Origin: a virus
Taxonomy: Duplodnaviria > Caudoviricetes
IMG/VR virus record: IMGVR_UViG_3300049988_000286
Span: 160,001 to 224,000 of that record
Length of the DNA: 64,000 nt
Strand: one strand, 5' to 3'
Shown: positions 248 through 53,753 of the stretch, one piece after another
How positions within the stretch are numbered: the first letter of the stretch is position 1
How the letters are laid out: the number at the start of each line of letters is the position of its first letter
Translations under genes and position numbers: made by a program
The notes under the pieces: model-generated
What the model was told of the DNA's origin: nothing
Databases searched by the model: none
Seen by the model: the letters and a program-made list of their open reading frames with translations, nothing else

Positions 248-383
248 TTGAACCATGCCCTGTTATACTTGGCGGCGGGACGTGCTCGCAATATTGTCCC
301 GCCGCCAAGGGCATGGTGGTTGCTTGAAAGTGCTCGATCGTTGCGGCGAGCATGTTGTAGAAAGTTTCCCGAAAACTTTAGCC

Positions 384-389
384 TAAATA
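384..389 (+). promoter_or_regulatory. T4-like late promoter core TAAATA, 4 nt before the MTase ATG
   Basis: cctaaatacattATG; the same hexamer precedes most structural genes in the window. Confidence 0.65.
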
Positions 390-2110: not shown

Positions 2111-4383
2111 GCCATTTTACTCTTGGAAATAGCGACCTGATGCGATTCGCGACGGTGTAGGCTGCGCGCGCTGGGGCCGACTTTAACCGGCACCACGACG
2201 TTCTCGGGAGTCTCCTCGAACTTGATATACTCCCTATCAACCAGCATGGTTACGAGGTGAACCACAGGGGTGCCGCTGCGTAGATCGAACGAAACGCGAA
2301 ACCGACGCTTTTTGGCATCGAGGAGCGTGGTGCGATTGTTGTGGCCGCTGGTCTTCCGGCCCCCCTTGCCGCCGTACTTGATGAAGTGATTACGGATGTC
2401 GATCTCGACGTGCTTCTGCTCGTTGACAGGATAGTGCACCCCATCTGGGCGCGTAGTGCCCGGACGCAACAGCTTCGCGCCAACACCAGCCTTCGTCATC
2501 GCATCTTGCAGATCACCCCAATACGGTCCCACAATAGCTTCGATGTCGAAGTTGAGGTAACGCGAGCGGGCAAGGTCGGACGGCGCGGACGTGACCGGAC
2601 CCTTCGCCCATGAGAGTTTGGGTACCGGGCCGTTTGTCTGGATAACCTTGGCTTCTCCAAACTGTTTGTGCCCCACGTTGACCTTCGCCTCTCGGTCGTC
2701 GCGCCTCACGACGTGTCCGAACACGTCGGTAAATCGCTGCCGAAGAGCCGTGAGGTGTTTGTATTCGGATTTGGTGAAATCGATGATAACTTGGTCTAGC
2801 GTCTGGCCGTTACGCGGCAAGAAGTTTTCCATGACAATCGAGTTACTGCCCGGATTCTTACGTGGAATCTTCTCGTGATACTTGTCATAGTCGCGGCGAA
2901 ACAGCCCGATCATCTTTTCGTTCTCGTCGCTCACGATCACCATAGTGGACCGCTGGTCGATAATCTTGAACCATCCACTCATGCGACCCATCGTGCCCTG
3001 CTCCATAGCGATGGTGTTGCTGAATGCGTCAGTGAAGTCGAACGCGAGGGTGCATTCGGCGGGAACGCGATCCTGTCGCCGAGCCGCCCCTTTCACGACG
3101 ATCAGGCAATAACCGTCGTTCTCTGCTAGCACGTCATCGATCTGCTTGTATCGCTTCTGCCCCGGCAGTAGCCGACCCTTGCGCTTCATATGCGTGTCGT
3201 AGAATGGGACCAGCTTGATCCCTTGCTTGCGCAGGATGGGTTCAACGTGCTTCTCGAAGTGGGCAGTCGTTGCCGCCGACCCCACGCGCACGATCCCTGC
3301 ACGACCGCCATTGAACTTTAGGCCGTTGAACCCACGGCGGGACGGTGGGTTCATGCAGCATTCGTAAAGCACCTCTGCGAGTAATTCCGCCTGAAGCCGA
3401 GCGTCCTTCTTGCGGTGCGTGTTGTTGCTCGACAGGTTCGCCGTATAGCTGGCCAAGGTGAAATCTGCGAAGGCAGGGTTACGAACGAGCTTCGACACGG
3501 TAGTGAACCCAAGCACGGGGGTTCGTTTACCCGCAACGGTACCGCAATATCCGCTGTTTGGATCGATGTGAACTTTGTAGTGTTTATAGTTCTCGATCTC
3601 CCTGTAGGGGTAGCTGGTCGCCGAGATGAGCAATAGGCGCACCTCATAACCACGGTTGCGAAGCTCGACCATCCAGCGATCAAGAACACTGTTGATACCG
3701 CTCGCGGCGTCACCCTCGTCGATGACTAAAGTGATGATTGTGGCTCCGATTTCCGTCGCGCCAGCATCGATCTCGTCGATAGGTGTTTCAGTCGAGCGTT
3801 TGAACGACTTGATCAGCCCGTTCTTGCAAGCGTCTTGGATGGTGTAGACCTCGCCATCGAGGTGCAGCGAGGCGTGCAGATCGACGAAATCTTCGAGGTC
3901 GTTGTTGGTTTGATCGGCACCGATATTTTTACCGGGGTTGACCAGTGCAATATACTCGGGGTTGCCGTCACGCTCGTTAAGCAACGCCCGAATACCGACA
4001 GCGAAAATCGAGGATACGGTCTTGCCGTATTGTGTCTCCGCCTCCAGCGCAATGTGGCTGGTGCTGTCAAGCAGAGACAGCATGTTTGCGACGACCTCGC
4101 CCTTATCGACATGGGGCATGGCACCGGGATAGGAACTGATAACCTCGAACGCCGTTTCGCTGCGCAACTGCATCTTGGCGTAGATTTCTCGCTGACGCTC
4201 CACCGAGAGCTTTATGTGCAGTGAGTGCGCAAGCTGGGCGTCAACGGCGACCTCTTGGAAGTCGTCGTTGAGGAAGGTGGTCAGGTGATCGAGGTATTGG
4301 CGATGGCCTTCGCCAACGATCCGCTGCATATCGCGAACGGTGAACGTCGCCTTGTCGTTCTTGATGCGAGATCGGATGGCCAT
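2107..4383 (-). CDS. SF2 helicase-like ATPase, Z1-domain/restriction-subunit-like
   Basis: Walker A AETQYGKT, Walker B LVIDEGDAAS, motif III ISATS, motif VI QGTMGRMSGW; start 4383 chosen for coupling to the upstream stop (4416 is the alternative). Confidence 0.7.
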   Translation of the reverse strand: MAIRSRIKNDKATFTVRDMQRIVGEGHRQYLDHLTTFLNDDFQEVAVDAQLAHSLHIKLSVERQREIYAKMQLRSETAFEVISSYPGAMPHVDKGEVVANMLSLLDSTSHIALEAETQYGKTVSSIFAVGIRALLNERDGNPEYIALVNPGKNIGADQTNNDLEDFVDLHASLHLDGEVYTIQDACKNGLIKSFKRSTETPIDEIDAGATEIGATIITLVIDEGDAASGINSVLDRWMVELRNRGYEVRLLLISATSYPYREIENYKHYKVHIDPNSGYCGTVAGKRTPVLGFTTVSKLVRNPAFADFTLASYTANLSSNNTHRKKDARLQAELLAEVLYECCMNPPSRRGFNGLKFNGGRAGIVRVGSAATTAHFEKHVEPILRKQGIKLVPFYDTHMKRKGRLLPGQKRYKQIDDVLAENDGYCLIVVKGAARRQDRVPAECTLAFDFTDAFSNTIAMEQGTMGRMSGWFKIIDQRSTMVIVSDENEKMIGLFRRDYDKYHEKIPRKNPGSNSIVMENFLPRNGQTLDQVIIDFTKSEYKHLTALRQRFTDVFGHVVRRDDREAKVNVGHKQFGEAKVIQTNGPVPKLSWAKGPVTSAPSDLARSRYLNFDIEAIVGPYWGDLQDAMTKAGVGAKLLRPGTTRPDGVHYPVNEQKHVEIDIRNHFIKYGGKGGRKTSGHNNRTTLLDAKKRRFRVSFDLRSGTPVVHLVTMLVDREYIKFEETPENVVVPVKVGPSARSLHRRESHQVAISKSKMA

Positions 4384-4981: not shown

Positions 4982-5807
4982 GCTCTTTCCTCCAATGGAA
5001 TTTACCGGCAGTCTTTGCCTGACCGTTGACGCACATCTGGATGCTGGACGCTGCAATCCCAGTATTTTTAGATGCCTCTGTGCAAGTTCTAAACGAGGCT
5101 ACCTCGCTACCGTCCGGGTTCAACTGCACGATCCGGTAATCAGTCTTCTTTTGACGATGCACGATCGGTGGGATCACTTCCACGTTGTGGCCCATCTTTG
5201 CTTGGATCACCAAACCGTCTTCAGTCCGCGTAGTACGGCTTTTACCTAGAAGCACCTGATTGAGAAGGCGATAGTCGATACCAAGTTCCGTCGCCGCCGA
5301 CCTCTGTGAGGTGTATTGCCCAATCGGTACACCGTCAGCGCCGTAAATCGTTACAGGCTTCGAAAATCGATCTGTCATGTCAGGCCGCTTTCGGCCCACG
5401 TTGATTTTGTTGCCAATCTTCTTCTCGGACATGATCGCTTTGGTGGCTTCCGTGTGGCGAAGGCCGTTCGCACCCTCTCCACCAAGGGTCAGGTTCGCAA
5501 GAGGCCCGGTGCCGTCACAACGCCTTCCAATTTGACCGATAAGCGCAATCTCGATCGCTTGGGCCATCTTCTCGGTCTCAACCGTCGCAAGGACATCTTC
5601 TACGATCTTCAGCCCATTCCTCCACGCCTTCCTGATAATATGCGCTTTGATCGTCTTGGCATCCCGCTTTCGAGCATCACAGAGATGCTCATTGAGACGA
5701 CGAGAACCGACAAAAGAGATGCCGATGTAAAAGGGGACTTCTTGTCCCTCTACTCGCAATTGATAAACATAATGTGACACGATGCTAAACTCCGATAGAA
5801 AGATCAT
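4968..5807 (-). CDS. free-standing GIY-YIG homing endonuclease with NUMOD3/NUMOD1-like DNA-binding repeats
   Basis: YVY..FYIG, RRLNEH, IEIALI, LANLTLGGEG, HTEATKAIMSEKKIG, FRTCTEASKNTG. Confidence 0.8.
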   Translation of the reverse strand: MIFLSEFSIVSHYVYQLRVEGQEVPFYIGISFVGSRRLNEHLCDARKRDAKTIKAHIIRKAWRNGLKIVEDVLATVETEKMAQAIEIALIGQIGRRCDGTGPLANLTLGGEGANGLRHTEATKAIMSEKKIGNKINVGRKRPDMTDRFSKPVTIYGADGVPIGQYTSQRSAATELGIDYRLLNQVLLGKSRTTRTEDGLVIQAKMGHNVEVIPPIVHRQKKTDYRIVQLNPDGSEVASFRTCTEASKNTGIAASSIQMCVNGQAKTAGKFHWRKEHEQG

Positions 5808-5814
5808 CTGTCGT

Positions 5815-5820
5815 TATTTA
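5815..5820 (-). promoter_or_regulatory. late promoter TAAATA for the homing endonuclease
   Basis: TAAATA 7 nt upstream of ATG 5807. Confidence 0.55.
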
Positions 5821-5837
5821 GCATCGTGTCCATTCAA

Positions 5838-7217
5838 CTACGCAGCCGCGCGATCCCTCACTTCGGCAAGCGTCGTCGAACCGACCGCAAGACCATCGAG
5901 GAAGCGTCGCTTGAGGAGGTCGCCTTCCGCGCCGTAAGCGACGGTGACGATTTGACCATCAATGCGCACCACCGAGAGGCGTCCGCGCTTCGAGCGCTTG
6001 CTGTGATCACCCACCGGGTCTTTGTAAACGTCGATCCACTCACCGTTGATGCGAGCCGCGCAGCACTTCATGGCGAACTTGAGATCATCGCGGTTGACGA
6101 TCTGGAGCAACCCGCCGCCCATGCCGAAGGCAATATTGTCGAGCGAGTAGCCAGCCGCCAAGACGTTCCGGATGAGGATCAGGAGCGTCTTGTGCGTGAT
6201 CCCATCTCCTTGGATGATCCGAACCGCCGGGTTGAGGACGCGAAAACCTTTGCTGTTGACGGTGTGGCCGAACGCCGCATCGAGGCGCTGTAGGATTTCC
6301 ACGGGCACCATTGTGGGGTCACCACTGTCAGGACGAACGACAACGACGGTGCCGCTATCGAGCACCTCTTGTTTGAGTTCGACGCCCCAGATGTTCGACA
6401 CCGCATTGTAGATGTCGTAGCTGTCCGAGACGGCGGAGATCATCACGCCGCGACCACCCAGCTTCGTCATCATGTTCCGATACGCTTGCGCCTCATGCGA
6501 GCGACCGAAGCTGGTGACCGTCGAGTGCTCCATCGCCGAAATCGAGTTGCCGGGCATCTCGTCAGCGTAGAAGCGACGCCCCGCCACGAGCGCTTCGAGG
6601 GTGTCGGTTCCACGGAAGTTGACGAGATGAGCGATCCCGCCGATTGCGGCGCTCTCGCCGCTTGACACGCCGCGTGCACCGAAATCGTGAAGCTTGAAGG
6701 GGATTTGACCCTGCGGATCGTCGGAACTCTCCACGAGGCCGTCCATGATCATCTGGCGGCACATGTAGGAATTTGTAGCTACCGTCGTGGGATACCAGAT
6801 GGCGCGAAGCAGCGCGGTTTCGAGGAACGAAGTCAGCCAGAAGAACTCCGGATCGGTGTTGACGATGGTGACGAGCGGGGTGCCGGTCGGCACAACCATG
6901 CCTTCGTCGATCGCGCGAATCTCCACCGGGAGCCTACCACCGTGCTTATCGACGAGAAGCCGCCATCCCTCTTCGAAGAAGGGCACGCCATAGAGGGGCG
7001 ACATCGCGACGGCCTCATCGACCATCGCGTGGGTTACGGGATTGGTGAGGATGCGATCTCGAAACATCTGAAGACCGAAGTAGCAGATACGATCCCAGAT
7101 GCCGCCACGGCTCTCGATGTAGGAGTAAACGTACTCCGTGCCTCCGGGGTATTGATATGCGTGCGACCACTTGTAGCCGTCGCTCATGATGCAGATGTTG
7201 TCGGTAAAGGTAGTCAT
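5838..7217 (-). CDS. nadV: nicotinamide phosphoribosyltransferase (NAMPT)
   Basis: SDGYKWSH, LHDFGARG, SAMEHS, VVVRPDSGDP, IIQGDG, FGMGGGLLQ; the track start ATG 7235 lies inside the SD, so 7217 is preferred. Confidence 0.95.
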   Translation of the reverse strand: MTTFTDNICIMSDGYKWSHAYQYPGGTEYVYSYIESRGGIWDRICYFGLQMFRDRILTNPVTHAMVDEAVAMSPLYGVPFFEEGWRLLVDKHGGRLPVEIRAIDEGMVVPTGTPLVTIVNTDPEFFWLTSFLETALLRAIWYPTTVATNSYMCRQMIMDGLVESSDDPQGQIPFKLHDFGARGVSSGESAAIGGIAHLVNFRGTDTLEALVAGRRFYADEMPGNSISAMEHSTVTSFGRSHEAQAYRNMMTKLGGRGVMISAVSDSYDIYNAVSNIWGVELKQEVLDSGTVVVVRPDSGDPTMVPVEILQRLDAAFGHTVNSKGFRVLNPAVRIIQGDGITHKTLLILIRNVLAAGYSLDNIAFGMGGGLLQIVNRDDLKFAMKCCAARINGEWIDVYKDPVGDHSKRSKRGRLSVVRIDGQIVTVAYGAEGDLLKRRFLDGLAVGSTTLAEVRDRAAA

Positions 7218-7238
7218 GATAATGGAATCCTCCATTAA

Positions 7239-7261
7239 GCCGCTCCATTCACCGGAGCGGC
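7239..7261 (-). promoter_or_regulatory. RNA hairpin GCCGCUCC-GGUGAAU-GGAGCGGC in the NAMPT leader
   Basis: perfect 8-bp stem; same loop as the hairpin at 8406-8428. Confidence 0.55.
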
Positions 7262-7271
7262 GGGGTTGATA

Positions 7272-8381
7272 TTACTTCTTCGGGGTCTTGAGCATTGCCT
7301 TGAGGGTTTCGATGATCGCGAAATGATCCTCGAACATCATCTCCGACTTGATGTCCGCGATAGGAACCCAGCGAGCCACCTTGGCATCGCTGCGACCCTT
7401 GACCTTCGGGAGGGGTCCATCTTCCAGCTTGATCAGGAAGACTTGCGAAACGACGCGGCCACGATCGCTGCGGTAGGGATAGTTGGCATTCATCTGGCCA
7501 ACCATCCCGCCCTTGAGGCGACTGTTATTCACGTCGATCTTGGTCTCTTCGCGAAGCTCGCGGATGAACGCATCTTCGTGCCATTCGCGGTTTTCGAGGA
7601 AGCCTCCGGGAAGCGCGAGCAGACCCTGCCCCGGAATGTTCTTTCGCTCGATGAGGAGCACGTGCCCGCTCTGAACCACCATGGCATCGACAGTGTTGTG
7701 AACGACCGTGGGGCGGAAACCGAGTTCCTTCTCCACCATGTCAGCAGCCTTCTCGAAGGCCCGGCGATAGTTCTGGTTGTAATCGACTTCGCGGAACAAG
7801 TGGGAAAGATCACCGCCACGCAAAAGATCACGGATGGTAGCGTTGGTGCCAAGCGGAACGCTCTTCGCCGATTCAGGTGACCACCGCTTTGATGCATACA
7901 AGGCGTCGCGCATGTTGGTAGCCGAGAGGTTATCGTGAAGGCTCTCAACCCCGATCGACTCCCACTGCGGGAACATATCGAGGAAGAAATGATTCCCCTT
8001 CTCGTCCTTGGCGTGCCCGATCAACGCGATCTTGGGCTTGTTTTCCCACGGACCGGTATCGTCGATGACGCGCGACATCGCGGACTGAACGTCCTCCTGC
8101 CATTGCAGATTGGAGTAAGGAGCGTCTCGAACAGCGGAGATCAGGATACGATCATGGAAGCGCGGATCGAACGATCCACGGATCATCTCCTTGACTTCGT
8201 TGAACGAGAAGGGAGAGCGCTCCGTGCGCGGCTGGAAGCACGAACCAACGATGACGTGGACGTACTTGGAGCGGGTGAGCGCAATTTCGATGATGCGATG
8301 GTGAGCGTTGTGGAAGGGGCGAAACCTGCCGATAAAAACGCAAAAATCGTACTGGCCCCCATCGGGGCGGTCGTCTGACAT
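7272..8381 (-). CDS. nadM: bifunctional NMN adenylyltransferase / Nudix ADP-ribose pyrophosphatase (NadM-Nudix, NatV-like)
   Basis: FIGRFRPFHNAH nucleotidyltransferase motif, IGHAKD, LSATNMRD, Nudix box GGFLENRE..RELREET, GRSDA, MFEDH. Confidence 0.92.
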   Translation of the reverse strand: MSDDRPDGGQYDFCVFIGRFRPFHNAHHRIIEIALTRSKYVHVIVGSCFQPRTERSPFSFNEVKEMIRGSFDPRFHDRILISAVRDAPYSNLQWQEDVQSAMSRVIDDTGPWENKPKIALIGHAKDEKGNHFFLDMFPQWESIGVESLHDNLSATNMRDALYASKRWSPESAKSVPLGTNATIRDLLRGGDLSHLFREVDYNQNYRRAFEKAADMVEKELGFRPTVVHNTVDAMVVQSGHVLLIERKNIPGQGLLALPGGFLENREWHEDAFIRELREETKIDVNNSRLKGGMVGQMNANYPYRSDRGRVVSQVFLIKLEDGPLPKVKGRSDAKVARWVPIADIKSEMMFEDHFAIIETLKAMLKTPKK

Positions 8382-8405
8382 TATATCCTCCATCAGAAGG
8401 GTTGC

Positions 8406-8428
8406 TGCGACCCATTCACCGGATCACA
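8406..8428 (-). promoter_or_regulatory. RNA hairpin UGUGAUCC-GGUGAAU-GGGUCGCA in the NadM leader
   Basis: 8-bp stem with two G-U pairs that form only on the mRNA strand. Confidence 0.55.
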
Positions 8429-8432
8429 CTTC

Positions 8433-8438
8433 TATTTA
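8433..8438 (-). promoter_or_regulatory. late promoter TAAATA for the nadM-nadV operon
   Basis: intergenic TAAATA about 50 nt upstream of nadM. Confidence 0.55.
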
Positions 8439-8470
8439 GGCCAATGCGGCTCCCTCGGTCAATATAAATC

Positions 8471-8499
8471 TTGCACCGCCGAACTATATCCGCTATGCC
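8471..8499 (+). promoter_or_regulatory. sigma70-type promoter TTGCAC-N17-TATGCC
   Basis: predicted +1 coincides with ATG 8506. Confidence 0.5.
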
Positions 8500-8505
8500 A
8501 CGGTT

Positions 8506-8955
8506 ATGGATGCTCGCTACACCCGCACCTACTGGTACGATGCACCAGCGTACGATGTTGCACAGACCTTCAATCGTGGGCAACTCGCCGGTTTCTACCC
8601 CGATCAAGCGCCGCAGAAGCGGGGCCGCAATCAGGACGAAGACCTGTGTCTCTTCCTCGATCAACTCTGCGCTCGATGGTTCAACACCCCATTTACGCTA
8701 CAGACCGAGTTCATGGCGGAGTATCGCTTCCTCGATCTCGATTATCGCGCTGCGAAAATAAGGTCGTATAACGCGCATATGGATCGTTGCTTGATCGAGA
8801 GCACGGACGACCCGTCCATGTACGCGATCTTCGATATGCGGTTCAAGCGCGGGTTCGGTGGCGTGTCGAGCAACGTCCTGCATTGCCACACCTACGAGGT
8901 GCATGAGTGGAACATTCCTGACCACGAGATGACCCTCATGCGGTTGATCTTGTGA
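8506..8955 (+). CDS. hypothetical protein, 149 aa
   Basis: ORF in a coupled run (GTGA overlap with the next gene). Confidence 0.75.
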   Translation: MDARYTRTYWYDAPAYDVAQTFNRGQLAGFYPDQAPQKRGRNQDEDLCLFLDQLCARWFNTPFTLQTEFMAEYRFLDLDYRAAKIRSYNAHMDRCLIESTDDPSMYAIFDMRFKRGFGGVSSNVLHCHTYEVHEWNIPDHEMTLMRLIL

Positions 8956-9212
8956 AGACGATTACGGTAGAACTCGGGCAAGGGAAGAGTTACGACTTCA
9001 TCACCGCCGTCGAGGTAGCGAGAGCGGTCGTTGAGGGGGAGTTTCACCTCAAGCTGGGGTTGGCCTCCGTAGAGGCATCGTTGCCTTCATCGAGGCTGCG
9101 CTACTTCCTCCAAAATCATCTCTCGGGTATGTTCGCGCTCATCTTCACATCGCAGCATGACGCCACCATGTTCGTCCTCGCCTATCAGAGGAGCGACAAT
9201 CCCGATGTTTGA
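8952..9212 (+). CDS. small hypothetical protein, C-terminal F-x-x-x-x-D-x-x-x-F-x-L family
   Basis: FTSQHDATMFVLAY. Confidence 0.7.
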   Translation: MKTITVELGQGKSYDFITAVEVARAVVEGEFHLKLGLASVEASLPSSRLRYFLQNHLSGMFALIFTSQHDATMFVLAYQRSDNPDV

Positions 9213-9456
9213 AGTCACTTTCCCACCCAGCGACTTCGACGGCATGGAACGCTTCTACGCGATTCGGCAAGCGCGCAAGCACGCGTTAGGGCCGTTCTCT
9301 TTGCGTGTGGGCGATAAGCGGATGTCAGCCATGAAGGGGATGCTTCCCGATGAGGCTTTTACCGCACATCTAGAGGATCGTTGGGGTCTCGTCTTCGAGA
9401 GCGAGGTGGACATGATGATGTTCAAGCTGGCGTTTCGCCCGATGGATCAGGCGTAA
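9205..9456 (+). CDS. small hypothetical protein, same family, 83 aa
   Basis: SD GAGGAG; FESEVDMMMFKLAF. Confidence 0.7.
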   Translation: MFEVTFPPSDFDGMERFYAIRQARKHALGPFSLRVGDKRMSAMKGMLPDEAFTAHLEDRWGLVFESEVDMMMFKLAFRPMDQA

Positions 9457-9797
9457 GCGGCAAGCTTCTTGGCCGTCGCCTTCATCCGCTTGCCCTCGGT
9501 ATCAGCGTGCTGGCAGCAGAACAGCAGGTTGATCACTCTACCCTTGAGCGAGTAGACGAGAATGATGTCGGGGGCGAGGTGGCAGTGCTGAAACCCCTTG
9601 AGCGGTCCGGTGAACGGACGATCATGGGAGCCGAAGCGTTGCTGTAAGGGATCGGGTAGCTTGGCGGCAGTGAACTGCGCCAGCTTATCCTTGAGACGCG
9701 GGTTTGCGCGCAGCAAGACGGCGAAGCTTTCGGTGAAGAGCGGCTTGGGTGCGATCGTCCACGGAACATCTCGTCCCGCTTCAACGATGATCGCCAT
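9447..9797 (-). CDS. YafQ/RelE-family mRNA interferase toxin, 116 aa
   Basis: DRPFTGPLKGFQHCHLAPDIILVY...CQHAD aligns by eye to E. coli YafQ DHPLQGSWKGYRDAHVEPDWILIY...GTHAA. Confidence 0.8.
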   Translation of the reverse strand: MAIIVEAGRDVPWTIAPKPLFTESFAVLLRANPRLKDKLAQFTAAKLPDPLQQRFGSHDRPFTGPLKGFQHCHLAPDIILVYSLKGRVINLLFCCQHADTEGKRMKATAKKLAAYA

Positions 9798-9805
9798 CCA
9801 CTCTC

Positions 9806-9946
9806 TTAAAGAGCGGCGAGCCACTTCGCGAATTCTTCCTGCGACATCGACTGGGTATCGTCCCCCTCGGCCGCGATGATGCGCGCGACGAGATCGGTAT
9901 CCTCGGTGATGATCTGCTCGATCAGCATGTCGGTGTCCTTTTCCAT
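9806..9946 (-). CDS. putative antitoxin, 46-aa acidic peptide (not in ORF track)
   Basis: MEKDTDMLIEQIITEDTDLVARIIAAEGDDTQSMSQEEFAKWLAAL; ends 8 nt before the toxin ATG. Confidence 0.65.
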   Translation of the reverse strand: MEKDTDMLIEQIITEDTDLVARIIAAEGDDTQSMSQEEFAKWLAAL

Positions 9947-9952
9947 GACCGG

Positions 9953-9958
9953 TATTTA
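9953..9958 (-). promoter_or_regulatory. late promoter TAAATA for the antitoxin-toxin pair
   Basis: 6 nt upstream of ATG 9946. Confidence 0.65.
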
Positions 9959-9984
9959 GCACAGTTCTGCGGCAAGGCAAGCAC

Positions 9985-9994
9985 TAATTGATTA
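9985..9994. promoter_or_regulatory. palindromic operator-like site TAATTGATTA (CACTAAT-TG-ATTAGTG)
   Basis: recurs at 14149 and 16076. Confidence 0.4.
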
Positions 9995-10019
9995 GTGAGA
10001 CTTAGCGAACAAAGACAAA

Positions 10020-10049
10020 TTGCACCCTTGGTGCGCCAGAAGGTATAAC
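10020..10049 (+). promoter_or_regulatory. sigma70-type promoter TTGCAC-N18-TATAAC
   Basis: predicted +1 coincides with ATG 10056. Confidence 0.55.
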
Positions 10050-10055
10050 ACCGTG

Positions 10056-10727
10056 ATGGAAAGAAATCGTTTTTGCGGCTTTTGTGGCACTGAATTCAAC
10101 GATCTGTCGTGGCCGCGCCACTGCACGAATTGCTCACGAGTGACCTACCGTAACCCCCTCGCTGTAGCGATCTGCCTCCAGCCGATCACCCACGGGGAGC
10201 GGACCGGACTCGCTATTGCCCAACGCGCTATTCCACCCGTTGGTGGTTGGGCGTTGGTGGCAGGACACCTCGAAGTGTTCGATCATGGTAGCGAAACGGT
10301 TGAGGAAGGGGCGGCACGCGAGTTCTTCGAGGAGACAAGCGTGCGTTCGGGCGCGAACCCACGCCTCATCCGCAGCGAGAAGAACCATCTCGGTCACCTG
10401 TTGATCATCGTCGAAACCGATGCCATCCCTTGGTCGGACTGGACAAAGGCCAGACCCTGTTCGGAAAACCTCGCCCTCGACGTAATGTGGGAGCCACGTG
10501 ACCTCTGCTTCCCCATTCACACCAAGGCAGCCAAGGATTGGTTCGAGGGTAGACAGAAGCCAGCAGCGACGCTTATCTTCAGCACCATCAACGAATACGA
10601 TTCGTGGTGCGCGGTATGGTCGATCGATCGGAACGGTGACTACATCGATGTGATCTTCGAGGATGCCGACGCGGAGACTTGCGAAGATTGGTGTGCCGCG
10701 AATGGCTATCGTATCGTCATCGTCTAG
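10056..10727 (+). CDS. Nudix hydrolase with N-terminal zinc ribbon and C-terminal extension
   Basis: FCGFCG...HCTNC..YRNP; GWALVAGHLE...AAREFFEETSV. Confidence 0.85.
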   Translation: MERNRFCGFCGTEFNDLSWPRHCTNCSRVTYRNPLAVAICLQPITHGERTGLAIAQRAIPPVGGWALVAGHLEVFDHGSETVEEGAAREFFEETSVRSGANPRLIRSEKNHLGHLLIIVETDAIPWSDWTKARPCSENLALDVMWEPRDLCFPIHTKAAKDWFEGRQKPAATLIFSTINEYDSWCAVWSIDRNGDYIDVIFEDADAETCEDWCAANGYRIVIV

Positions 10728-52700: not shown

Positions 52701-52805
52701 TAAAAGCCGGTTTTTCACGCTTAACCTAAGCGTGAGAATCGGTGCGCCTAAATAAAAACGACACATGAGCAGTGTTGAGCAAAACCATATAGAGGAGTTA
52801 TTATA

Positions 52806-53753
52806 ATGAAGTCTATTCTTGAAAAGGCTTTGGTCCACCTCCTGAACGAGGACGTTGAGAAGGCACAGGAACTGATGCACCAGTTCGTCGTCGAACAGGC
52901 GCGCGCGATTCACGAGAGCCTCCGCGAGGGCGACGAGTGCGACATGGACGCCATGGACGATACCCTTGAGGAGAACGAGTTCTTCACCGAGGCTGATCTT
53001 GAGGACACCGAGGCTGCCGAGCAGCTTGAGGACGACCTCGACGACAACGACGGTGGCGACATCGCCGGTGGTGACGACTTCGGTGGCGAGGAAGTCGCTG
53101 CTGATGATCTCGACGCAGCCGAGGTAGAGGGTGGCGACGACATGGGTGCCGAGATGGGCGACGACATGGGCGGCGAGGGTGACATGGCCGAGAAGCTGGA
53201 CACCATCGAGGACGAGATCGCTTCGCTTCAGGCCGAGTTCGAGAAGATCATGGCCGAGTTCGACGGTGGCGACGAGATGGACGCCACTGATGAGGCTGGT
53301 GATGACTTCGGCGACGACGTTGAGGTTGCGGATGCTGACGCGGTTGACGCCCCCGAGTTCGGCGGCGAGACCGAGGAAGAGGACGAACAGGACTTCGATC
53401 GCGTCACCGAGTCGATGGTCGATGATCTGAAGAAGGTCTCGGTCCCGAACGAGGACGGTCGCGGTGCTACCGGCCAGAAGCTGTCCACCCCGACGACTTC
53501 GCCGATCGCCAAGGACGCGAAGCCGACCGTTCTTCGCTCGAAGAACACCGTTGGTCACACGGGTTGGGAGCGCGAGACTGCACCGTCGAAGAAGGATGGT
53601 CCGGATCGTGGTCGCAAGTACGACAACAACCGTTCGAAGGCCACTGACGGCAACGAGAAGATGCCCGCCACTGGTCCCAAGAAGGCGGAGATCAACAAGC
53701 CCGTCGCTGGCAACAACAAGTCGGTGATTCCGGGTAAGAAGAGCGGCAAGTAA
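52806..53753 (+). CDS. acidic prohead core protein (gp67/68-like position)
   Basis: very D/E-rich, TAAATA at 52749-52754, position before the protease. Confidence 0.7.
   Translation: MKSILEKALVHLLNEDVEKAQELMHQFVVEQARAIHESLREGDECDMDAMDDTLEENEFFTEADLEDTEAAEQLEDDLDDNDGGDIAGGDDFGGEEVAADDLDAAEVEGGDDMGAEMGDDMGGEGDMAEKLDTIEDEIASLQAEFEKIMAEFDGGDEMDATDEAGDDFGDDVEVADADAVDAPEFGGETEEEDEQDFDRVTESMVDDLKKVSVPNEDGRGATGQKLSTPTTSPIAKDAKPTVLRSKNTVGHTGWERETAPSKKDGPDRGRKYDNNRSKATDGNEKMPATGPKKAEINKPVAGNNKSVIPGKKSGK

Follow-up and report, generated by a model that had tools for sequence, protein, structure and literature searches.

Twin leader hairpins with an identical tip on both NAD-salvage genes of a large phage: a candidate sequence-read operator

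In the phage genome IMGVR_UViG_3300049988_000286 (Caudoviricetes), the two genes for nicotinamide adenine dinucleotide (NAD) salvage, nadM-Nudix and nadV, are each preceded by an RNA hairpin, here called H1, whose 11-base tip, CCGGUGAAUGG, is identical in the two copies while the stems below it differ yet compensate. Both genes lie on the minus strand of the stretch that was analysed (the window: 64,000 nucleotides, bases 160001-224000 of the 499,572-bp IMG/VR virus record; 57% G+C). The exact tip is found nowhere else in the genome, each copy stands at a short and similar distance from a start codon, and the tip is conserved in the nadM leader of a relative. We tentatively propose that H1 may be a lineage-specific operator hairpin which is read by its sequence and which coordinates the translation of both cistrons.

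Results

Two hairpins with one tip

On the mRNA strand, nadV is preceded by UAA-UAUCAACCCC-GCCGCUCC-GGUGAAU-GGAGCGGC-UUAAUGGAGGAUUCCAUUAUC-AUG and nadM-Nudix by CUAAAUA-GAAG-UGUGAUCC-GGUGAAU-GGGUCGCA-GCAACCCUUCUGAUGGAGGAUAUA-AUG. An earlier note on this DNA had described twin hairpins with the same GGUGAAU loop and the same closing pairs in front of the two genes, and both the sequence and its folding bear this out. RNAfold extends each H1 by one G-U pair, giving a stem of 9 bp and a pentaloop GUGAA. Between the nadV and nadM copies five of the eight stem pairs differ, three of them by changes on both sides and two by a change on one, and pairing is kept throughout. The nadM H1 has two further G-U pairs and the plus strand forms no such hairpin on folding, just as the earlier note had stated in assigning this copy to the mRNA strand only.

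Folded as a whole, the nadV leader forms two adjacent hairpins (-24.7 kcal/mol, z -3.7), H1 being followed by a second hairpin, H2, that contains the Shine-Dalgarno (SD) sequence; the fold of the nadM leader has -17.8 kcal/mol and z -1.7 (RNAfold for both). The distance from H1 to the AUG is 21 nt before nadV and 24 nt before nadM-Nudix, and the spacer between H1 and H2 is 2 nt in the nadV leader; in the nadM leader it is 5-9 nt, according to how H2 is folded. Read by eye, the SD region of nadM may alternatively pair CUGAU with GUCAG, spanning both the SD and the start codon. Neither H1 was called by a terminator scan, the tails being UUAAUGG and GCAACCC, and neither is thus an intrinsic terminator by this measure.

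In the 499,572 bp of the genome the exact tip, CCGGTGAATGG, occurs twice, solely at the nadV and nadM leader sites. None of its eight one-mismatch copies is a leader hairpin, and those that could be placed fall inside open reading frames (ORFs); in a genome-wide scan no other hairpin with a stem of at least 6 bp bore the GGUGAAU loop. These counts uphold the earlier statement that the element is missing from other intergenic regions. They also agree with the claim of a common SD context, since the 9-mer AUGGAGGAU follows both H1 copies and, out of nine occurrences in the genome, just these two lie in leaders. The prs gene of this phage has no such leader. Recurrence of a tip is by itself not rare: a chance check on 596 hairpins with stems of at least 8 bp and 7-nt loops returned two recurring tip 11-mers. 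Of these two recurring pairs, only that of nadM and nadV lies 1.2 kb apart, on the same strand and in the leaders of one pathway.

Promoter and transcript ends

The nadM H1 stands four bases after the motif CTAAATA, which occurs 97 times in the genome against 23 times for the reversed control. An ATG or GTG follows the motif at exactly 4 nt at 51 sites and at 5 nt at 12, and where a start codon lies at 3-5 nt, as it does at 66 sites, an ORF of at least 60 amino acids (aa) opens in 59 cases. This spacing places the transcription start about 5 nt downstream of the motif, and transcripts from CTAAATA promoters seem usually to begin at the start codon, leaderless, with some 60 such mRNAs in this phage. 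As the nadM H1 starts where the start codon usually stands after CTAAATA, it would form the extreme 5' end of its mRNA. The earlier note had put this copy at the 5' end of a late transcript: the CTAAATA spacing supports the 5' end, but a conserved TTGAC upstream suggests that the promoter may resemble those of sigma-70 and not be of a purely late type (the consensus promoter scan did not flag TTGACC at 8457..8462). No CTAAATA lies upstream of nadV, and the nadV H1 is therefore internal to a bicistronic RNA.

Further CTAAATA sites in the window are found at 383-389 (+), 9953-9959 (-), 5815-5821 (-) and 52748-52754 (+), and many of the ORFs driven by the motif have a common N-terminus of the type MR(N/Y)(F/W)I(D/N)L.

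Conservation of the tip in relatives

The closest NadM relatives (P0003-P0017, 50-79% identity) were compared as proteins. Leaders were compared with those of L013, the one useful relative to come from protein-guided scans of viral, metagenome and genome collections; the remaining relatives from these scans had NadM of 31-42% identity or NadV of at most 58%. L013 is a metagenome contig whose NadM is 56% identical over 284 aa and which is syntenic with this phage, including a homologue of the divergent gene P0122. Its nadM leader reads CTAAATA-AGAT-TGTGACCC-GGTAAAT-GGGTCCGT, with the tip CCGGUAAAUGG at the corresponding place and 24 nt from H1 to the AUG, in the same register. When the intergenic regions of this phage and L013 are aligned, conservation falls into blocks at the -35 hexamer, at CTAAATA and at the hairpin tip, and the tip block, TGTGAyCCGGTrAATGGGTC, is the longest conserved intergenic stretch, exceeding the promoter hexamers. 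Within this block L013 has one transition in the loop (G to A) and one stem change from U-G to C-G. Over the three H1 sequences, the two copies here and that of L013, two-sided changes are seen at four pairs, and 89% of cells are paired. A quickly built NadM tree puts this phage and L013 in one well-supported clade, parted at its basal split, which makes it probable that the clade ancestor already had the tip.

The nearest large phage whose DNA was compared, G001, has leaders of the H1/H2 type on both of its NAD genes, behind an ATAAATA motif (L281:1447-1505 and L281:2559-2605). Its nadV H2, AAUGGAGAAGUUCCAUG, is nearly identical to that of this phage, and its H1 tips are CGG-GAAGU-CCG and CCGGAUGUCGA; such hairpins can thus exist without a common tip.

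A search for N-terminal extensions of relatives that might reveal leaders found none. A scan of IMG/VR for CTAAATA-N(6-14)-CCGGTRAATGG gave 11 matches, none of them in a hairpin with a stem of at least 5 bp or beside NAD genes, and one for GAYCCGGTRAATGGGTC gave 43, most of which apparently encode, on the opposite strand, the motif DPF(T)GSG, which we take to be motif I of DNA methyltransferases. Read in reverse complement (GACCCATTCACCGGATC), the tip encodes DPFTGS (L286-L328), and scans with tip patterns returned mostly coding matches of this kind.

A family of two-hairpin leaders on NAD-salvage genes

About 240 loci, comprising 1.5 Mb around phage nadM and nadV genes, yielded a family of leaders with a different loop (alignment A2, covariance model R1). 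The commonest 7-nt hairpin loop in these loci is GAUAGAC, with about 145 distinct copies; the GAUAGAC hairpin is followed by an A/C-rich spacer of 8-20 nt and then by a hairpin that presents AGGAGUU just before the AUG. Among 127 distinct copies, 55 stand before NadV-like, 44 before NadM-like and 28 before other ORFs, proportions that are biased because the loci were chosen around these genes. In an alignment of 73 copies 93% of cells pair, with a covariation score of 0.95 against 0.18 for shuffled alignments, and the H2 of the family, which was not selected for pairing, is 97% paired. The family is absent from Rfam, and no paper on it was found in the searched literature.

Several loops are seen on this layout. 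GAAAGAC and GACAGAC are scattered in the main NadM clade and GGUAGUC is limited to a deep, separate one, so that GAUAGAC, GGUAGUC and the GGURAAU of this phage and L013 each occur in a NadM clade of their own. The GGUAGUC leaders (L217:1460-1503, L225:1452-1496, L226:1412-1456, L251:635-682 and L260:1380-1430) precede a NadM of about 324 aa with the N-terminus MKTGIFIGRFQP, and in these phages nadV retains the SD hairpin only, without H1. Bacterial chromosomes have the canonical leader too, before NAD-salvage genes of Methyloversatilis (L174:2955-3003 and 4106-4161) and of a Methylobacter metagenome-assembled genome (L176:2944-2994), and it is thus not confined to phages; these bacterial leaders have GACAGAC or GAAAGAC loops, those of L174 score 37-39 bits and that of L176 is in the seed alignment.

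By covariance score the leaders of this phage do not belong to the GAUAGAC family. Model R1 gave no match on either of them at an expectation (E) value of up to 10 over the whole window and missed the L013 hairpin, where the best alignment to overlap it reached 4.7 bits in the wrong register. When forced onto leader slices of 70-76 nt, R1 aligned in the right register at only 3.2 and 2.2 bits, whereas scores of 23-53 bits are reached by family members, GC-rich and non-seed copies among them. The loops also fall outside those of the family, being GGUGAAU here and GGUAAAU in L013 as against GAYAGAC, GAAAGAC and GGUAGUC; GGUGAAU differs from GAUAGAC at four positions and GGUAAAU at three, all by transitions, and what they share with it is G1, U3, A6 and pairable end bases.

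In layout the likeness is closer. One copy stands directly before each cistron, nadM-Nudix and nadV; each has a strong H1 with a 7-nt loop whose ends can pair (G-C in the family, G-U here), and there is one loop type per genome or lineage. The SD hairpin that follows H1 in the family and ends at the AUG has a near counterpart before nadV, where H2, GG-AGGAUU-CC, is close to the SD-in-loop form of the family, GG-AGGAUUU-CC, whereas the nadM H2 is poorly formed, that leader having only a 5-bp anti-SD pairing or an alternative with a 12-nt loop. Unlike those of the family, the closing pairs are invariant here, and the spacer is shorter, at 2-9 nt. We regard the GGURAAU leader as a divergent form, specific to one lineage, of the operator-like leaders found on NAD-salvage genes. 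It may work like the GAUAGAC leader and may be a diverged relative of it, the GGUAAAU loop of L013 being intermediate.

One other leader in the window is of this general kind. At 52748-52808 (+), before a 315-aa gene beside the prohead protease, a late-type leader has CTAAATA and then two hairpins with an A/C-rich spacer between them, the first of 6 bp (CGACAC/GUGUUG) and the second with the SD in its loop (AUAG-AGGAG-UUAU). It is the sole match of R1 in the window, and a weak one (11.1 bits, E 3.2). The two-hairpin layout is accordingly not exclusive to NAD genes in this phage.

Genes of the NAD-salvage locus

The features of the locus are collected in Table 1. P0122, which is divergent from nadM and has the intergenic region in common with it, belongs to a small family of about nine proteins and has no match in Pfam or PHROG; its homologue in L013 occupies the same divergent position (L013:777-1199, minus strand; 27% identity, E 4e-17), the protein having 140-150 aa in these two phages. 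Its AlphaFold model has a pLDDT (predicted local distance difference test) score of 71, and the best match in the PDB is a weak one to an Aha1 C-terminal domain (E 0.028; template modelling score, TM, 0.37). No RNA-binding fold was matched in the PDB, and the Atlas search was also empty.

Table 1. Coordinates in the window of the leader elements, promoter motifs and genes of the NAD-salvage locus
Feature	Position	Strand	Remarks
H1 of nadM leader, UGUGAUCC-GGUGAAU-GGGUCGCA, 23 nt	8406..8428	-	begins at predicted +1
H1 of nadV leader, GCCGCUCC-GGUGAAU-GGAGCGGC, 23 nt	7239..7261	-	10 nt past nadM stop codon
H2 of nadV leader, UAAUGGA-GGAU-UCCAUUA; contains SD GGAGGA (7228-7233), then AUC and AUG	7220..7237	-	RNAfold
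SD region of nadM; SD GGAGGA at 8386-8391	8386..8400	-	RNAfold pairs CCUUC (8396-8400) with GGAGG (8387-8391)
CTAAATA promoter motif (-10-like or late-type)	8433..8439	-	genome counts; conserved in L013
TTGACC, -35-like hexamer, 17 nt upstream of CTAAAT	8457..8462	-	same spacing in L013 (alignment)
nadM-Nudix (P0002), nicotinamide mononucleotide (NMN) adenylyltransferase and adenosine diphosphate (ADP)-ribose pyrophosphatase, 369 aa	7272..8381	-	Pfam CTP_transf_like and NUDIX; phrog_395; equal-length homologues
nadV/Nampt (P0001), nicotinamide phosphoribosyltransferase, 459 aa	5838..7217	-	Pfam NAPRTase and NAMPT_N; phrog_448
NUMOD-type homing endonuclease gene	5807-4968	-	downstream of nadV
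P0122, divergent gene without assigned function, 149 aa	8506..8955	+	intergenic region common with nadM

Between the nadV stop codon and the homing-endonuclease gene, at 5777-5829, lies a 13-bp hairpin (ACACGAUGCUAAA / UUUAGCAUCGUGU) whose 5' arm holds the CTAAATA motif of the latter gene, so that promoter use and RNA structure may be linked there. A second Nudix protein is encoded at 10020-10727 (+), 1.6 kb from nadM; it has an N-terminal zinc-ribbon-like CxxC pair (Pfam NUDIX, with DZR below the cut-off) and is apparently kept in L013:3-335 (-), as judged by eye from the translations. It recalls the NudC-type NADH pyrophosphatases and NAD-decapping enzymes.

Discussion

The explanation that we favour, with a confidence that comes near to even but stays below it, is that H1 is a lineage-specific operator, read by its sequence and coordinating the translation of both NAD-salvage cistrons. 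The recognition element would be the tip, that is the closing pairs C-G, C-G and G-U with the loop GURAA, presented at the upstream edge of the ribosome-binding region and beside the weaker, SD-containing H2. A trans-acting reader, most likely a protein, would bind both copies and, by governing the access of ribosomes, set the translation of NadM-Nudix and NadV together, repression being the likeliest direction of control. Two secondary effects would be expected: at the 5' terminus, the nadM H1 should shield the transcript from 5'-end-dependent decay, and ribosomes that terminate at the nadM stop codon should transiently melt the nadV H1, coupling the two cistrons. A stabilising role of the 5'-terminal nadM copy, additional to that of an operator, is indeed likely, since other leadered transcripts start with hairpins.

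Three features argue for such an operator: the tip is invariant on stems that are free to change, it lies at a fixed distance from two start codons, and one of its copies is internal to the operon. The nadV H1, being internal to a bicistronic mRNA, is not accounted for by a function that is confined to the 5' end of the transcript. A dedicated regulator of the pathway is made more plausible by the analogous leader that stands, with another loop, on nadM and nadV of many phages. That the hairpins form a cis-acting RNA element for both cistrons, as the earlier note had held, is borne by the strand-specific pairing, the uniqueness, the tip on compensating stems, the distance to the start codons and the tip in L013; for the mechanism, that note had named a protein operator, a processing site or a small-ligand element. 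Beyond the structures themselves, the reading of the tip by a factor, the protein nature of this factor and the control of translation as the outcome are inferences.

Protein-read hairpins that limit translation are known from the operators of T4 and RB69 gene 43, of E. coli thrS and of the MS2 coat protein. Like these, H1 is a short hairpin 5' of, or overlapping, the ribosome-binding site; unlike them, it is present in two copies for two cistrons, and it resembles none of them in sequence. As candidate readers we consider the NadM-Nudix of the phage and the conserved divergent neighbour P0122. A search of the genome for RegA gave no match to Pfam PF01818, in a search run without a positive control. 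The loop types track NadM clades, with few independent changes, which suggests NadM-Nudix as a candidate. The more specific proposal that the H1 loop is the specificity determinant for RNA binding by NadM-Nudix, or by a partner such as P0122, and that the two have co-diversified into at least three classes (GAUAGAC, GGUAGUC and GGURAAU) is one that we consider distinctly doubtful.

Several points weigh against an operator. The reader of H1 is a putative one, and the operator role is itself proposed from sequence. The stem covariation claimed in the earlier note stands as a set of two-sided and one-sided changes, but with three sequences it is statistically weak, 32-46 of 500 shuffles reaching the observed values. 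Conservation comes from a single relative, L013, and there only from the nadM copy. In G001 (457 kb, NadV 58% identical) the H1 tips are unlike those of this phage and unlike each other. The clustering of loop types on the NadM tree amounts to only two to four changes and may reflect shared ancestry alone. Finally, a hairpin at +1 is a general habit of leadered CTAAATA transcripts in this phage, being found in several others (genome positions 327945, 358381, 415278, 214543 and 212748).

This last point leads to an alternative that we regard as unlikely though by no means negligible, in which the hairpins are generic stabilisers or processing sites. The nadM copy would block 5'-end-dependent decay, the nadV copy would protect either a nadM fragment at its 3' end or a processed nadV mRNA at its 5' end, and the common tip would be an unread leftover of leader duplication or gene conversion. 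Protection by a 5'-terminal stem-loop is established for the E. coli ompA leader, and the nadM copy, like that stem-loop, begins at the predicted first transcribed base, exactly at +1. That other leadered CTAAATA transcripts are also hairpin-first, and that the hairpins of G001 are comparable without a common tip, fits such a role as well. An unread loop should drift, yet all 11 tip bases are identical where five of eight stem pairs have diverged, and at 56% protein identity no part of the intergenic region is better conserved than the tip block. A conserved loop and an internal second copy are, moreover, not needed by a stabiliser of the ompA type.

We consider it very improbable that H1 and the SD region together form a small-molecule riboswitch for NAD+, NMN, ADP-ribose, nicotinamide or phosphoribosyl pyrophosphate (PRPP). 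The gene context would be typical of one, H2 contains the SD, and the NAD+ riboswitches of class I (nadA motif) and class II (pnuC motif) likewise stand in leaders of NAD metabolism; unlike those, however, the hairpins here are far smaller and have no internal-loop or pseudoknot architecture. A cmscan of 5000-10500 against Rfam at E up to 10, which covers the NAD+ classes, returned four unrelated, chance-level matches, none at the hairpins, so that the earlier impression that this is not a known NAD riboswitch is sustained. Just 11 bases are conserved between the copies, the spacer between H1 and H2 differs from one leader to the other, and no alternative fold comes near H1 in stability. By eye, no complement of the loop is common to the two leaders, GAAU pairing with AUUC in the nadV leader only. 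A ligand pocket in a 23-nt hairpin without a conserved tertiary partner is unlikely.

Little credence can be given to a protein-binding hairpin of the boxB kind acting in antitermination or processivity. The boxB of lambdoid phages (lambda, P22) is a GNRNA pentaloop on a short stem, and the G-U-closed GUGAA and GUAAA fit the G-N-R-N-A pattern, a likeness by pattern only. An antitermination context was not seen here: no boxA, N-like gene or downstream terminators were identified, boxA and N-like proteins not having been searched for systematically, and the cistrons that flank the second copy are closely spaced.

Just as little speaks for an operator at the DNA level for a transcription factor such as a host NrtR, even though NrtR regulons include nadV and nadM (PMC2330246). 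NrtR sites are 21-bp palindromes with conserved arms, a GT-N7-AC core and a 7-bp centre (PMC2330246). Here the arms vary and the asymmetric centre is conserved, which is the reverse of what a dimeric operator would have, and CC and GG close the loop where an NrtR site would have GT and AC. As DNA the nadM copy is palindromic at 6 of 8 positions, and it is a full helix only as RNA, where it needs G-U pairs, and the nadV copy is internal to the operon and without a promoter motif. The hairpins are thus unlikely to be NrtR operators.

Least credible of all is a chance coincidence of two unrelated hairpins: two recurring tip 11-mers among 596 strong hairpins would allow for one, but not for the adjacency, the single strand, the leaders of one pathway, the common AUGGAGGAU block and the conservation in L013.

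Three possible partners of the loop were also considered and rejected, namely a pseudoknot with the SD (the GAAU/AUUC pairing exists before nadV only), pairing of the loop bases GGUGA with the 3' end of 16S rRNA (lost in L013) and a kissing-loop partner in trans (chance-like matches only).

A sequence-read operator on these two genes would bear on how phages manage a counter-defence. NadV (Nampt) and NadM (Nmnat) make up NARP2, by which phages rebuild NAD+ and escape defence systems that deplete NAD+, among them Thoeris, DSR and SIR2-HerA (10.1101/2024.02.11.579819). NARP2 consumes PRPP and overproduces NAD+, and it is reported to have been toxic to clone in E. coli (10.1101/2024.02.11.579819); the cost and toxicity of the pathway provide a rationale for tight, coordinated control. 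No regulatory RNA for the NARP2 pathway was found in Rfam or in the searched literature, and a dedicated cis-element on both cistrons would be a control point of this costly pathway. As another loop stands on a similar layout in a separate NadM clade, the question of the reader is directly testable by loop and protein swaps between lineages. If NadM-Nudix does read the loop, a metabolic enzyme would autoregulate a whole counter-defence pathway through a small operator, and this phage would provide a natural swapped-specificity pair.

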